Positions 4,080 to 57,530 of a stretch of DNA of 64,000 nt are shown here, piece by piece (the stretch's first letter is position 1; each line of letters opens with the position of its first letter). The notes under the pieces were generated by a model, which worked only from the letters and a program-made list of their open reading frames with translations, was not told the DNA's origin and did no database searches. The DNA lies in NCBI GenBank assembly GCA_965287045.1, contig OZ336886.1, positions 29,202,001-29,266,000 on the forward strand, in the 5' to 3' direction. The position numbers and the translations under genes are program-made. The stretch is from Carcharhinus amblyrhynchos (Eukaryota).

Positions 4080-4950
4080 CAGGGAACCCACAGACATAGC
4101 AGATGAAGGCTGAACCCTGCTAACCGGATTTACAGAATCTGAATATCATACCTGCAGATAATGAAGCAGCAGTGTCGCCAGAGACTTCGCCTTTTAGAAG
4201 AAACTATCACATCCCTATGTGACATACTGGAGACTAAGATAGCCTTCAATTTTGTGAGTGGCCACCTGATGCTTGTGACCTTAAAAATGACAGTTGCCTT
4301 AAACATCTTTGCCTTCAGCTTACTCCACTTGTGGAGACTTCATTGCATTCATCCAGCCTGCAAGACATCCATGTATAAAGATCTTCACTGATGCCATATT
4401 TGGATATGCACATCCACATCTTTCCTTTTACAACAGACACCAATAGTCAAGTGGAAGAGTCAGAGGCGATATATCCATGGCTGGTTTCCCAAGGGTACAA
4501 GAGGTCAGTGAATGTACCCATTTAGTTATCATTGCACTGGCAGAGAAGATTGGGGCTTTCATCAACTACAAGGGACATCACTACATAAGTGTGCAGATTA
4601 TGAGTGAACAAATAAAAGAATCATACATGTGTATGCAAACCATCATGGATATATCCTCAGACACTCTCAGGGATGTTTATAGGGCAGGATGCTTTGGATG
4701 AATGATTATTCAGAGACAAAGGCTAACCCCTGAAGAAATAGCTGATGACTACAGTACAGAGTACAAGGTAGAGCCTGAGCATCATTACAATAAAAGCCAT
4801 GCAGTGACTAGGACAATCACTGAGCAGACCACTGCTTTGCTCAAGGTGACGTACTGATGCCTTGATAGATCAGGTGGATTGCTCCAGTATGCAACAGCTA
4901 GAATCTCCCTCGTGACCATAATCTGTTGCATACTGCATTATTGGTTCTCT
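4080..4950 (+). pseudogene. PIF/Harbinger (HARBI1-like) DDE transposase relic within an element spanning about 3500-5590
   Basis: Frameshifted motifs QQCRQRLRL, LKMTVALNIFA, AGFPRVQ..ECTH, FINYKGHHYISVQ, DKG*PLKK*LMT and TRTITEQT..LK..CLDRSGGLLQY match the Harbinger transposase consensus. Confidence 0.85.
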
Positions 4951-12311: not shown

Positions 12312-12560
12312 GTTTTAATGTTTAATGTCACGTTACTTTACATTAACACTGCAATGAAGTTAATGTGAAAATCCCCTAGTCGCCATACTCCGGTGTGTCT
12401 GTTCAGGAACACTGGGGGAGAATTTAGTGTGGCCAATGCCCCTAACCAGCATGTCTTTCAGACTGCGGAAGGAAACTAGAGCACATGGAGGAAACCCACA
12501 CAGATGTGGGGAGAATGTGCAGATTCCCCACAGACAGTGACCCAAGCCTGGGTTGAATTC
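12312..12560 (-). mobile_element. V-SINE (Rex1-like tail type), head truncated at the B box
   Basis: Reverse complement of the V-domain and of the same tail type as 2681-2969. Confidence 0.85.
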
Positions 12561-12801
12561 AGCCTCAGGTGACAGTCTGTGTAGAATTTGCACATTCTCC
12601 CCATGTCTGCAGGGGTTTCCTCTGGATGCTTTGGTTTCTTCCCACAGTCGAAAGATGTGTAGGTTAGTTAATTGTCCATGGTAAATTGCCCCTTAGTGTG
12701 TTAGCCCTGTGTTACATGATAAGGCCTGGGTAAGATTGTTGTCAATACAGACTTGATGGATGAATGGCCTTCATCTGTAATCTAGGGATTCTATGATTCT
12801 A
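12551..12801 (+). mobile_element. HE1-type V-SINE, head truncated at the B box
   Basis: V-domain followed by a CR1-type tail ending gggattctatgattcta. Confidence 0.85.
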
Positions 12802-16249: not shown

Positions 16250-16562
16250 ATCATAGAATCATAGAATCCTACAGTGCAGAAGGAGGCCATTTGGCCCATC
16301 GATTCTGTACCGACCACAATCCACCCAGGTCTTATCCCATAACCCCGTGCATTTATTCTAGCTAGTGCCCTTGACACTAAGGGGCAATTTACCATGGCCG
16401 ATCAACCTAACCCTGCGCATCTTTGGACTGTGGGAGGAAACCCATGCAGAGATGGGAAGAATGTGCAAACTCCACACATACAGTGATCTGAGGCCGGAAT
16501 TGAACCCGGGTCCTTGGTGCTGTGAGGCAGCAGTGCTAACCACTGTGCCACTGTGCCACCCA
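16250..16562 (-). mobile_element. Full-length HE1-type V-SINE
   Basis: Minus strand has A box gtggcacagtggttagc, B box gggttcaattcc, the V-domain, and a (gattctat)n tail. Confidence 0.92.
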
Positions 16563-29495: not shown

Positions 29496-31187
29496 GTGCT
29501 TCAGAAAACCATCCATGTTCTGAAAACAAACACTAGATTTGAAGGTCAAAATAGCCCCTAACCTCACTGTCTCTGTTATTTCAAGGTATGACAGACAACA
29601 CCAATGATGATAATCAATCTGTTACCACACGTATTTAAAACAAGTGAATTAGGCTTAGCTATAGACACCTCCCAATGTTCAAAGGCATCAATTGCTGCTG
29701 TAAATAGTCTGAGCTTCTTTGGAGCAGCACCCAACCTGCAAAAGCATACAAAATGGGTTGTTTCACATTCGCCGCCTGTATATTGGGTGGGCAGTATTGA
29801 CATGTTTAGGATTCCAATTAAATTTCACCCCCTTTTAGTTCATGGGAGTTGACTCACGCTGTACATCTACTTCTGGGATGTAACAATAATATTCCCTTGA
29901 GCCCTGAATTATAAATTTTTTTTCTTTGGCACATAATTATTTTTCAATCCCTCTGAAGGCAGACTGAGCAAGCAAGATGAGGCACAGTTTGATTTGAATT
30001 GTAAACTGCTTTTTTCCACAATATACAGACCAAGAGGTATGACCAGTACAATTATATTCACACAATAGTAAAAAAAAGATACTACTTGCACTTGTGTGGG
30101 TCTTTTTACTTAATTTAGCAGAATAATCCCTCTGCATTGGCCACAGGCAGACCTGATATCCTAGCAGTGTCGTCTCCCTTTTGCTGTTTTCTGGTTGAAA
30201 AGCCTCTCACTTTCATAGACTGCCAGAGATCAAAGGGTTTTTTCAGTGATATAATAATGAATCACATATTGATACATCTCTGGAAGGAGCAATTTTCAAT
30301 TAGTAAATTAACCACCTTTCCACCCATGTGAAAATACACATTGCACCATTGCAATATATTCTTCTTGCAATTTTTAAGCCTTGTTAAGTATTTCTTTTCA
30401 TGGTTATATTTCTGCTTTGAAGGGAAGGATAATAATGTTTACATACCCCACTGATTAGTGTACAGAGAGATTGAGATAATAACATTCTTTTGTAGTTCTT
30501 GCATTTGAACTAAATAAGCACATGTAAACCTGGAAATTATGTTGTGTATTATTATCACATAAATGTTTATTGTACTCACGCCAAACCTGTTTACTTGCTA
30601 TTTTATTGGCAATGTTAATCCAGGTAAAATCAGATCAGGCTGAAGTTTTATTAACAAATATATAGGAGTGATTCTCCCAACCCGCTGTGCTAACTTTTAG
30701 CGTGGCGGGCCACGAGAATCGCGCGGCGGCTGATTCGTGGGATTCACGCATGTGTTCCCGACGTGCGTGCATCTCCCAGTGCTGGACATCCGGTGCAAGT
30801 TGGGGCCACGCTGGAAACTCGCAAGAACAGCAGGTAAGACATTTTAATCTATTTTAAATATTATTTAAATGTGATTATTGGGCCCGGTACTGAATTCTCT
30901 GGGCCTGCTAGCATCTCCCACCAGTGGGGGTTCAGGCTAACTCCCCACTTTTGGGGAAGTAGCAGGAGACCCTGCTAGAGTGAAGGGGAGACAACTGAAG
31001 ACCCCCAAGGGTCAAGCAGTGGGGGGGTAAAGCCCCCAGGCATGGGCTCTCTGACAGTGCAAGCCTGTGGCATCTGGTATTGCCCAAGGGGCAAAGTGCC
31101 CATGCCTAGGGGCACCTTGGCACTGCCCACTGGGCATGGAGCAGTGCCAAAGGAGTGAGGCGTAGAGGACAGGACCAGCTGGGAGTT

Positions 31188-31309
31188 GGGCCTAGTGGGC
31201 AATCTGTGGGAGTGTGGGGTGGGGGTGTCCACTCTGCATTGGGAGCGATCGGGCCTAGCCGGCAATCTGTGGGGGTGTGGGGTGGGGGTGTCCACTCTGC
31301 ATTGGGAGT
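31188..31309 (+). repeat. 63-bp G-rich tandem duplication (two copies)
   Basis: gggcctag..ggcaatctgtggg.gtgtggggtgggggtgtccactctgcattgggag occurs at 31188 and 31251. Confidence 0.9.
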
Positions 31310-31786
31310 ACAAAGAACAAAGAACAACCCAGCACGGGAAACAGGCCCTTCGGCCCAACGAGCCCGCGCCGCCGCATCCTCCTACACCTATTCTACCCTG
31401 CGTGGCTACGAGTGGAACCCCTAACTTAGCCAGATTCAGGGGAGAATAGTGTCAATTTGGTAAACCAATCAGCCTAAGAGCACATCTTTGGGGTGTGGGA
31501 GGAAACCGGAGCGCCCGGAGGAAACCCACGCAACCACAGGGAGAATGCGCAAACTCCCACAGACACAGGCCCAAATCCATGTATCTGCACAGCTAGCAGT
31601 GCTAGTCACTGAGCTGTTGCGGCGCCCGTCTACCAGTCCAGGATCAAGCACACACACCGACACGAAGTACGAGGCCACTCCCGGAACCTCCAAGAGCAGC
31701 CCACGCACGACCCACCGTGTGCATGCCCCTCGTTTGACAACAAGGTGGACCTCCACCTGCAGAATAAAAAGACAAAAACGTTAACA
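31310..31786 (-). mobile_element. Composite CpG-rich V-SINE with a deleted B box and a ~160-bp 5' extension
   Basis: GAGT duplicated at 31306-31309 and 31787-31790. (ttctttg)n CR1-type tail, V-domain, and head gggcgccgcaacagctcagtgactagcactgc with no ggttcaa B box. Confidence 0.8.
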
Positions 31787-32619
31787 GAGTGATCAGAGCT
31801 GGAGGGAGGCCAGCGATTGGAGCAGGCCGAAAGAGGGGAGGGGTGATCTGCTGGGGTGATTTGCCTCCCGTGGGGGCAGGGGGGTGGGAGGGGAGCATAT
31901 TGTCACTGCTGAAGGGGCGGGGGGGATGGTGGCTGGAGATCGGAGTGCTCCAGAATGGTGGGCAAGGTTGGGGTTGTCTCGGGAATGCTTGCAGGGGCCA
32001 CAATTGGACCATGGGTGTGTTGGGAGGGGCAGCACTGTGGGTTCCTGGGCTGGCCGGTGATCGAGTTGACCAGCAAAGTGCAGGCTGACAGTTTGGGGCC
32101 ACTACGCATAGACAGCGGCCCGGAACTGTGAGACTCTGGTGCAAGTAGGCCCTGCCCCCCGAGCTTTTAATGATATGCCCAGTTGTAACCTCAGCAGTGC
32201 ACAGTGTGTGTGAGATTCTAGTGTGAACTCCCACTGAAAAAAACTACCATGATTTACACCAGTTTCCCTGTGAATTCAGCATTCTCCTAGAACTTTTTTG
32301 CGAGAATCACCCCCATATTTTCCAGGTTATAACGAATTAAGTTCACAACTAGTTGTAGTTATTAAATACAGTTCCAGAGGCAAAATCTTGAGGTTGGATT
32401 TTTTTTGAAAAGCAGAAATAAAAGAAAGAAAAAGATGTTTATAATAAAACACTATTGGGTGCATTGTGAATAGGAGACTGATGCTCCAAAATTGCACATC
32501 CTTTCTAGCAAAATTCAAATACGTCCATACTTGCCCACATTGACGTTATTCATCCATATAATGTTTGTTGGGGCCTTGTTTAAGGGCTACCAATGCCCTC
32601 CCCAAATGAAGTCACCAAT

Positions 32620-34289: not shown

Positions 34290-35250
34290 CAGCTTCCTTG
34301 AACTCTCTGAAGACCAGTGCTTCCTGAGGCTCACATTAACATGCCAAGTAAAAGCAGACATCTGCAGCCTTCCAGAAGAACTGCTTCCTGCTAGACCTGT
34401 TGGCTATGTGTTGCCTGTCAATGTGAAAATCACTGCTGCCTTAAATTTGTTTGCCACTAACCTCTTCAAGATGCAGTGAGGGTTTCCTGATCTGCTGCTC
34501 ATAAACCTATAAGGCAGGTGAATGATTGGTTATTTGCCTAGGAGTCAACAATACCAACTTCTTTTGAGATAACATAAGAACATAAGAACATAAGAAATAG
34601 GAGCAGGAGTAGGCCATCTGGCCCTTCGAGCCTGCCCCGCCATTCAATAAGATCATGGCTGATTTGTCGTGGCTCAGTTCCACTTTCCGGCCCTCTCCCC
34701 ATAACCCTTAATCCCCTCTCTTATCAAAAACCCATCAACCCGCTTCTTGAAAATATTTAGCGAGGCAGCCTCCACCACTTCAACGGGTAGAGAATTCCAG
34801 AGATTCACCACCCTTTGAGTGAAGAAGTTCCTCCTCAACTCCGTTCTAAAACGCCCCCCCTTTATCTTGAGGCTGTGCCCCCTAGTCCTACTGTCTTTTT
34901 TGAGCGGGAAGAGTCTCTCCACCTCTATCCTATCCATCCCATTCCTCATCTTATACGTCTCAATGAGATCTCCCCTCATTCTTCTAAACTCCAACGAGTA
35001 CAAGCCTAGTTTATTCAGCCTCTCCTCATAGCTCAACCCCCTCAACTCCGGTATCAGCCTAGTAAACCTCCTCTGCACTCCCTCCAAGGCCAAAATATCT
35101 TTGCGCAGGTGCGGCGCCCAAACAATAACAATAGCCAGAATGAGCAGGCACTCAAGAGTTACATCTGTGGTGAGATTCCCACAGATACAGAATGTCATTG
35201 ATTACACACACAACACAATCCAAAGACCATCAGATCAACCAGGAACTTTC
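34290..35250 (+). pseudogene. Third Harbinger transposase relic, split by a young CR1
   Basis: LELSEDQCFLRL and GYVLPVNVKITAALNLFAT lie before the insertion, and RFPQIQNVIDYTH lies after it. Confidence 0.75.
34571..35122 (-). mobile_element. Young 5'-truncated CR1 (HER1-like), sister of 7929-8574
   Basis: Open ORF2 C-terminus (WAPHLRKDILALEGVQRRF...GKWN*) and a (ttcttatg)n tail. About 14 differences from the 8-kb copy over about 545 bp by manual comparison. Confidence 0.95.
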
Positions 35251-55502: not shown

Positions 55503-56169
55503 TTGAAATTGAATTGATTTATTATTGTCACATGTATTGAGCTACAGTGAAAAGTACTGTTACTTGCAAGCTATACAAACAAAACATATCATTCGTAGAC
55601 AACATAGGGGAGAAGAAAAGGACAGGGTGCAGAGTATAATGTTGCAGTTACAGATAGGGTGGACAGAAAGATCAGCTTAATATGTGATAGGACTATTCAA
55701 AAGTCTGATGGCAGCAGGGAAGAAGTTGGTATGTGTTTTCAGACTTTTGTATCTTTTTCCTGGCAGAAGAAGATGGAAGAGAGAATGTCTGGCGTGCATG
55801 CGGTCCTTGATTATGCTGGCTGCTTCCCCAAGGTAGCGGGAAGTTTAGATAGAATCAATGGATGGGAGCTTGGTTTGCATGATGGACTGGGTTACGTTCA
55901 TGATTCTTTGTAGTTTCTTGCAATCTTGGTCAGAACAGAAACCATAAGCTGTGATGCATCCGGAAAGGATGCTTTCTATGGTGCATCTGTAAAAATTAGT
56001 GAGAGGCTTAATGGAAATGCCTAATTTCCTTAGCCTCCTGAGAAAGTGGAAGCTTTGGTAGGCTTTCTTCACTATAACATCGGTGTGGAGAGAACAGGAT
56101 AGGTTATTGGTGATCTGGACACCTAGAAACCTGAAGTTCTCAACCATTTCCACTTGATCACAGTTGACG
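55503..56169 (-). mobile_element. Rex1/Babar LINE 3' fragment
   Basis: VEMVENFRFLGVQITNNLS...FLRRLRKLG..LTNFYRCTIESILSGCITA, with the same tail as 49620-50104. Confidence 0.9.
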
Positions 56170-57530
56170 TAAGAACATAAGAACTTAAGATCATAAGAAA
56201 AGCATAAGAAATAGGAGCAGGAGTAGGCCATTTGGCCCTCGAGCCTGCTCTGCCATTCAATAAGATCGTGGCTGATCTTTTCATGGACTCAGTTTCACTT
56301 ACCATAACTTACTCACTTACTCAGTCCACTCACCATAACCCTTGATTCCTTTACAGTTCAAAAAATTTATCTCTCCTTGCCTTAAAAACATTCAATGAGG
56401 TAGCCTCAACTGCTTTAGTGGGCGGGGAATTCCACAGATTCACAGTCCTTTGGGTGAAGAAGTTCCCCTGAACTCAGTCCTAAATCTACTCCCCCCTTAT
56501 TTTGAGGCCATGCCCCCTAGTTCTACTTTTACCTGCCAGTGGAAACAACTTCCCTGTTTGCATCTTGTCTATTCCCTTCATAATCTTATATGTTTCTATA
56601 AGATAGCCCCTCATTCTTTTGAATTCCAAAGAGTATAGTCCCAGTTTACTCAGTCTCTCCTCATAGGTCAACCTTTACAACTCTGGAATCAACCTAGTGA
56701 ATCTCCTCTGCACCCCCTCCAGTGCTATATATCCTTTCTCATGTAAGGAGACCAAAACTGTACACAGTACTCCATGTGTGGCCTCACCAGCACGTTATAC
56801 AACTACAATATGATCTTCCTGTTTTTAAACTCCATCCCTCTAGCAATGAAGGACAATATTCTATTTGCCTTCTTAATTACTGCTGTACCTGCAAACCAAT
56901 TTTGTGATTCATGCACAAAGACACCCGGGTCCCTCTGCGTAGTGGCCTGTTGCAAATTTTACCATTTAAATAATAGTCCATTTTGCTGTTATTCCTACCG
57001 AAATGGATGACCCCACATTTACCAACATTGTGTTCTATCTGCCAGACCCTTGCCCACTCACTTAAACTATCTACATCCCTTTGCAGACTTTCAGTGTCCT
57101 CTGCACACTTTGTTCTACCATTTACCTTCGTGTCATCTGCGAACTTTGACACACTACCTTTTGTCCCCGATTCCAAATCATCTATGTAAATTGTAAATAA
57201 TTGCAGTTTCAATACTGATCCCTGAGACACACCACTAGTCACTGATCATTAACCAGAAAAACACCCATTTACCCCCACTCTTTGCTTTCTGTTTGTTAAC
57301 AAATCCTCTATCCATGCCAATACTTTACCCATAAAAAAAGCACCTTCATCTTACAGCCTTCGGTGTGACACCTTCTCAAATACCTTCTGGAAGTCCAGAT
57401 ACACCACATGCACAGGTTCCCCATTGTCCAACGTACACATAATGTCCGCAAACAATGCCACCAAATTAGTCAAACACAATCTGCCCTTCATGAACTCATG
57501 TTGTGTCTTCCCAATGGAACAATTTACATT
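56170..57530 (-). mobile_element. CR1 RT-to-3' fragment (older HER1-like)
   Basis: VVYLDFQKVFEKVSHRRL, TSGVSQGSVL..LFTIYIDDL, SKFADDTK and YEERLSKLGLYSLEF motifs, with a degenerate (ttcttatg)n tail. Confidence 0.92.

Follow-up and report, generated by a model that had tools for sequence, protein, structure and literature searches.

A V-SINE module in the 3' UTR of a CR1-type LINE from Carcharhinus amblyrhynchos and its likely retention by selection

The window, a stretch of 64,000 nucleotides from Carcharhinus amblyrhynchos (contig OZ336886.1), has a 477-bp insert at positions 31310-31786. The insert is flanked by a GAGT target-site duplication on the plus strand, with its left copy at 31306-31309 and its right copy at 31787-31790. 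It lies in an older GC-rich repeat (30657-32321), likely a non-autonomous DNA transposon, that is bounded by imperfect terminal inverted repeats, includes a tandemly duplicated 63-bp unit (31188-31309) and has relatives at 39 other places (71-81%). When the insert and one GAGT are excised, the second 63-bp repeat continues intact. Among the seven host relatives compared, three (L152, L154 and L157) span the site without the insert and the other four stop short of it. Since three relatives cross the site without it, the insert is not part of the host element. A preliminary description of this DNA had read the segment as a single insertion interrupting the second 63-bp repeat, and the duplication, the restored repeat and the three empty sites agree with it on both points. 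The observed/expected CpG ratio is 0.72 in the insert compared to 0.21 in the window. A Pfam search of the 136 window frames of at least 75 amino acids gave two matches, an RT fragment and PF09004 at 55848-56288, the latter of which we take to be typical of LINE ORF2 ends. No host gene or exon was recognised in the window by this search, which short exons would escape; therefore, the suggested role as an exon trap is unsupported at the window copy.

The insert reads on the minus strand in the order first proposed for it: a pyrimidine tract with an AG, a CpG-rich segment, a tRNA-like head, a V domain, a linker and a tail. As a whole (31310-31786, minus strand) it matches positions 4133-4610 of a natural copy of 4611 bp with 95.4% identity and corresponds to the 3' UTR of a 5'-truncated CR1-type LINE copy, from subfamily A of an element of about 4.6 kb. 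The pyrimidine tract and YAG/G acceptor-like motif occupy 31757-31778, with the AG at 31758-31757 as originally placed. The motif is 76 nt past the ORF2 stop in full copies and is present in six subfamilies. The CpG-rich pre-head segment (31628-31756) has a sense strand that is predicted to form a long hairpin or multi-stem RNA domain. This segment of about 130 bp had been called both CpG-rich and unique. The first term is correct, but a 21-mer from the segment has 1717 exact matches in the genome, corresponding to at least 1717 copies. The extension is thus neither single-copy nor, as the host relatives without the insert indicate, part of the host inverted-repeat element, which were two possibilities raised against the composite structure.

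The tRNA-like SINE head (31567-31627, minus strand) is decayed. It has an A-box remnant, and in the alignment with free V-SINE copies it lacks the B-box stretch. A B-box motif is found in 0/80 and 0/26 embedded copies compared to 17/33 free V-SINE hits, and ARAGORN finds no tRNA, in line with the earlier reading of a head with an A-box-like motif and no B box. Rfam gives six weak matches, every one under the gathering score, and none at that level for the CpG-rich segment. The V domain (31461-31566, minus strand) had also been named correctly. It is 81% identical to the majority of the 33 free V-SINE hits and agrees with the published frog V-SINE Racla at 79/93 positions in an ungapped comparison by eye, using the available part of the PMC5804259 supplement. 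The fast-changing linker (31376-31460, minus strand) has a weak likeness to CR1-tailed free SINEs and none to L2-tailed ones. The CR1-type 3' tail (31310-31375, minus strand) ends in the TTCTTTG repeat that was expected. The tail may be the LINE's own or the SINE's: comparison with LINEs and with SINEs gives about equal scores (0.50 and 0.51) after the core, where each comparison set included one copy of the V-bearing family; by eye, the bases directly after the core agree with sister LINEs. Free V-SINEs are present in the window at 2750-2852, 12464-12659 and 16398-16482 and at many other loci, and several are arranged in head-to-head or tail-to-tail pairs. The tails of 51 free V-SINE hits include 19 that are CR1-like and 16 of another type, which is presumably L2-like. 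The HE1-like SINEs and CR1 content of the genome are suggestive of an elasmobranch.

When the genome was searched with the extension, 1416 candidates came up at first look; 40 of them were scored and are 98-100% identical. The likeness extends further 5' in 28 of the 29 other best-matching loci, where it enters an RT reading frame; the added length ranges from at least 160 bp up to over 1.5 kb. Fourteen longer stretches contain elements of up to 4.6 kb with two ORFs. The ORF2 frames of L032 and L040 are open for 920 and 960 amino acids from stop to stop, and both have PF00078 (RVT_1) and PF03372 (Exo_endo_phos) above the cut-off. ORF1 is SGNH-like; in L037 it has a Lipase_GDSL_2 match (E 8.6e-06) below the cut-off and an OSK match above it. 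Another 40 loci, chosen independently through the V region, all match the LINE. Of these, 34 carry ORF2 sequence, two are near full length, and the remaining six are UTR-only with different starts.

A further set consists of the first 80 copies by position among the 100 matches listed on contig C1. All 80 are 3'-complete, 71 reach the ORF2 stop and 56 continue for at least 395 nt, with staggered 5' ends. The nine UTR-only copies each have a start of their own, at distances of 0 to -56 nt from the acceptor, and the truncations go on into ORF2 at a rate similar to that in the UTR. In two smaller sets (3/40 and 3/30 copies) the truncations hinted at a hot spot in the T-rich tract, which is not clear in the 80-copy set. 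The median distance from the family majority is 2.3% in this set and 2.6% for the window copy, in agreement with the young age proposed for the insert. The 5' end of the window copy is 46 nt short of ORF2 and 30 nt before the AG of a LINE 3' UTR of about 550 nt, and the copy includes no ORF2 sequence.

Since its relatives continue into ORF2, are 3'-complete and have staggered 5' ends, the insert is almost certainly a 5'-truncated copy of an autonomous CR1-type LINE that retains the 3' end, and an ordinary one. The features expected of a LINE are an ORF2 with endonuclease and RT, found here in the relatives, a common 3' end, staggered 5' ends and a short duplication. Of the features expected of a V-SINE, the V domain is present, but a head with A and B boxes and a separate 5' end as a short non-autonomous unit are absent. 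The CR1 label is drawn from the architecture, the tail and what we take to be CR1 ORF2 ends, and is probable on these grounds. CR1 elements are marked by a microsatellite 3' end without poly-A, here the TTCTTTG repeat; a poly-A tail within this group is described in PMC13343379, as far as its available text goes, as unique to Zenon.

Other features of the long copies were also recorded. L032, L038 and L043 have 5' inversions or rearranged pieces, and 5' inversions are mostly reported for L1 in human cells according to the available part of PMC4245944. The LINE 5' UTR (L036, L037, L059 and L071) has a TATA-like motif, ETS-like motifs and two donor-like GTGAGT sites, and in L037 a 5' unit of about 190 bp, resembling a promoter monomer, is partly duplicated. 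Another young CR1-type family, with the tail TTCTTATG, is repeatedly inserted in or beside V-bearing copies (L016, L082 and L067) and has a copy in the window at 34701-35078. Near-identical copies at steps of about 55-110 kb on contig C1 (L129-L132; G000:C1:3.26-4.41 Mb) suggest large tandem segmental duplications.

The V-bearing LINE has six subfamilies, A, B, C1, C2, E and F. Subfamily B was found via a diverged relative sharing the long UTR, C1, C2 and E via loose ends in public contigs, and F via a control search pattern. The copies of subfamily F (L250-L269) are near-identical to each other; their ORF2 end, which lies directly upstream in 17/20 loci, is only 70-72% identical to that of subfamily A. 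In many of them the pre-head domain is 12 nt shorter through the loss of one small hairpin. Recent activity seems to extend to at least two diverged V-bearing subfamilies. At the same loci there are other CR1-type families whose 3' UTRs are short and lack V; the tail motif is about 460-590 nt past the stop in the V-bearing LINE compared to about 30-85 nt in most sister families. A midpoint-rooted tree of 68 ORF2 ends, with subfamily F left out, places 44 of the 45 V-labelled rows in one clade of 47 rows with support of 99/99. The four label exceptions are another CR1 inside a subfamily A copy and three interrupted copies, of which L062 was assigned from split hits. Since there is one V-bearing clade at 99/99, a single capture is the simplest reading, and the V-SINE head and V were most likely captured by the LINE lineage once. 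In public contigs of organisms A, B and C each of the 30 bins of the ORF2 end and UTR is represented, with no spanning piece, and contigs of organism G cover the acceptor region. This is a weak sign that related species may carry the V-bearing LINE.

The majority sequences of the six subfamilies, made from 4-6 copies each, were compared in 15 pairs. Identities are 90-98% for V, 82-100% for the head remnant, 84-96% for the tail and 73-95% for the pre-head segment, compared to 52-89% for ORF2 third codon positions, 55-91% for the spacer after the stop and 40-89% for the linker. For subfamilies A and F, the V, head and tail are 92%, 82% and 96% identical, while ORF2 third positions, spacer and linker are 52%, 55% and 40% identical. 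The identity of V is greater than that of third positions in 15/15 pairs. The head, V and tail change slowly relative to synonymous sites and the neighbouring UTR. Folding of the head and V together is no more stable than that of shuffles (z -0.5 to -0.7, three copies). From these comparisons the captured SINE module is likely kept by selection and would aid the LINE's own RNA; a cis-acting function of the module is fairly probable. The explanation as a whole, a LINE 3' end with a SINE module kept by selection for the LINE RNA, is given a probability of about 0.72. V-less sister CR1 families spread in the same genome without the module, so it is not required for spread.

The pre-head segment of the window copy is predicted to form a long hairpin with a folding z of -3.57, and 0/200 shuffles are as stable. 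One copy from each of the six subfamilies gives z from -2.7 to -7.7 on the sense strand compared to -0.3 to -3.0 on the antisense strand, with two kinds of shuffle; G-U pairs favour one strand regardless. The structure has 40 predicted pairs, of which 16 vary among subfamilies. Ten of the 16 always pair and two change on both sides, compared to 2-5 always paired and 0-1 two-sided changes in slid controls; this covariation is modest, and the structure was predicted from the same rows used to score pairing. A 39-copy alignment agrees, where the two-sided changes are mostly in single copies and are inflated by the interrupted row L147.

The acceptor-like YAG/G is present in 32/32 copies of the six subfamilies with a pyrimidine fraction of 0.72-0.88, although for C1, C2 and E this conservation is circular since their search pattern demanded the AG. 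The search for A, B and F (18 copies) did not demand the AG, and the A and B rows were later located by an AG-containing motif. The AG is intact in 76/78 position-ordered copies of subfamily A, and the spacer before the motif varies in sequence and in length, about 50-145 nt. Foreign letters directly precede the acceptor in 5/1717 A copies compared to three at a control position, and on inspection four of the five are truncations at the site and one is a mutated long copy. Retrocopy searches of the genome found no spliced retrocopy and, in particular, no copy with a 5' UTR donor joined to the acceptor. In older subfamilies, none of the 12 inspected hits of 15 has the LINE 5' UTR upstream, with the subfamily A reference as the only one compared; the 15 hits are without a control since the control pattern matched subfamily F instead (762 matches). 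There is no GT-AG joint at the acceptor in public contigs of runs guessed to be RNA. In one X1 contig foreign letters end four bases before the exon start; truncation fits this as well as splicing, so the contig counts neither way. L056 was rejected as a spliced copy, as it is an internal deletion in which ORF2 is joined to the last acceptor bases by microhomology; a similar junction is present at G000:C11:87096091. In subfamily A the acceptor is followed by an open frame of 95 codons; by eye, a stop closes this frame in subfamily B, and it was rejected as a gene. To judge from the copies, the RNA that is copied keeps the acceptor region unspliced.

Two alternatives concern where the piece comes from. 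The preliminary description held that the copy probably did not arise from a Pol III promoter of its own and was mobilised by a CR1-type enzyme, and both statements are borne out: the B box is absent, and copies continue 5' into the LINE ORF2. It also placed the start of the element at the acceptor and proposed an upstream source, either an SVA-like family or a 5' transduction. There is an upstream source, but it is the LINE itself, as the 5' part is LINE ORF2 and ORF1. The genome-wide check laid out there did yield many near-identical copies with no B box and variable truncation, but the 4.6-kb LINE with two ORFs takes the place of a new SINE family. An SVA-like V-SINE family, non-autonomous and extended at its 5' end from a splice acceptor, would account for a window copy that has no coding sequence and begins shortly before the AG, and for the 9/80 copies that are likewise UTR-only. 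The nine different starts of those copies, the truncations that continue into ORF2 and the copies that reach 4.6 kb argue against it. With 28/29 loci extended 5' and 71/80 copies in ORF2, a start at the acceptor fails and the SVA-like or 5'-transduced family is ruled out; it is the least credible of the alternatives. The reverse direction, in which a LINE 3' UTR gave V-SINEs their body, is scarcely more probable. A LINE origin of SINE bodies has been proposed (PMC5786205, available part), but the embedded piece contains a decayed tRNA-type head, the sister CR1 families are without it, and V-SINEs range from cnidarians to frogs in the available parts of PMC5804259 and PMC4824008.

The other two alternatives concern why the piece is kept. 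The main rival to a selected module is a neutral passenger homogenised by recombination: the identity among subfamilies would reflect low mutability, or exchange between co-active subfamilies by recombination or template switching. It gains from the success of V-less CR1 families, from several subfamilies being young at the same time, from the lack of a folding signal in the head and V, and from the published hypothesis of recombination at conserved SINE domains (PMC5804259, available part). However, the spacer and linker, both neighbours of the module, are diverged in distant pairs, so exchange would need repeated confinement to about 170 nt. The head also keeps lineage-specific changes that free SINEs lack, so these are not the donors. 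The passenger is considered unlikely. The tract and YAG/G could instead be a working acceptor under selection, with LINE or host donors spliced onto a V-bearing last exon to give a regulatory non-coding RNA or an exon trap. The motif retained behind a variable spacer in all six subfamilies, the AG kept in nearly all position-ordered A copies and the donor-like GTGAGT sites in the LINE 5' UTR fit this. The circularity for C1, C2 and E, the near equality of foreign junctions and control with every junction a truncation or mutation, and the retrocopy and older-subfamily searches without a join or a 5' UTR go against it, and the T-rich tract may be kept for protein binding. A working acceptor is doubtful.

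LINE RNA is a Pol II transcript, and the ORF2 protein binds its 3' tail and copies it by target-primed reverse transcription that often stops early. For the selected module, an insertion or a template switch in a LINE ancestor would have placed the 5' portion of an HE1-like V-SINE after the stop codon and ahead of the tail. Without the B box, Pol III would no longer have made an internal transcript bearing the LINE tail; since such a transcript would compete for the LINE enzyme, the loss of the box may have been favoured. The head remnant, V and upstream hairpin might then act at the level of the RNA, on its stability, its export or the assembly of particles. An influence on RNA stability is one of the roles suggested for SINE central domains in the available part of PMC4824008.

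Several known systems share parts of this arrangement. CR1-clade LINEs with an esterase ORF1, such as HER1 of sharks and rays (PMC13343379, available part), likewise have an SGNH-like ORF1 and an endonuclease-RT ORF2, and available descriptions of HER1-type LINEs also include a short microsatellite tail, frequent 5' truncation and a short duplication. The zebrafish ZfL2-1 has 5-bp target-site duplications (PMC4245944, available part), and a table in the available part of PMC3747384 pairs the SINE HE1 with HER1. What sets the V-bearing UTR apart from HER1-type LINEs is its SINE head, V domain, hairpin domain and acceptor-like motif. In HE1-type V-SINEs of elasmobranchs and in frog Racla, as far as they are described in the available text, a tRNA-like head is likewise followed by the V domain; unlike them, the embedded piece has no B box or independent 5' end and rides in a protein-coding LINE RNA. 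MER6/MER6A, a mammalian Tc1/Mariner MITE with a V domain (PMC6887750, available part), is likewise a case of a V-SINE piece captured and spread by another element. As described there, MER6 is a dead non-autonomous DNA element with no RNA step, whereas the V-bearing carrier is an autonomous retrotransposon in which constraint is measurable across subfamilies. A motif search of the PMC6887750 supplement gave no match. RTE-1_DAn (tRNA-like) and Ingi-3_AC (a Ceph/RTE-like piece in the 5' UTR) have SINE-related sequence within an autonomous LINE (Kojima 2018, PMC5786205, available part). These are other clades and other pieces, and the available part of PMC5786205 reports no V domain in a LINE 3' UTR. 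The V-bearing LINE is similar to SVA in its composite structure and Pol II transcript but differs in encoding its own enzymes. SVA-type retroposons are composite, are copied from a Pol II transcript and are non-autonomous.

The window copy is an ordinary truncated insertion, and what may be new is the V-bearing LINE family. Such domains were stated in 2016 not to be found in LINEs (PMC5804259, available part), and there is no description of a V domain in a LINE 3' UTR in the literature searched; repeat libraries and closed supplements could hold one. Short copies like the window insert will be mis-annotated as SINEs. The conservation of SINE central domains such as V over hundreds of millions of years has been called a major enigma, and here V, with no Pol III promoter, is part of the 3' UTR of a LINE that is abundant and was recently active, and it changes more slowly than the synonymous sites of that LINE. 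Since an autonomous element suits a standard reporter assay, the role of V is directly testable by deletion. It is conceivable, at slightly less than even odds, that an autonomous CR1 lineage domesticated its parasite, with the SINE promoter switched off and V, the new hairpin domain and the splice acceptor forming a selected cis-acting RNA module. If true, a conserved SINE core would work on its carrier RNA regardless of the polymerase, and the LINE may splice onto the V-bearing module to yield a regulatory RNA.
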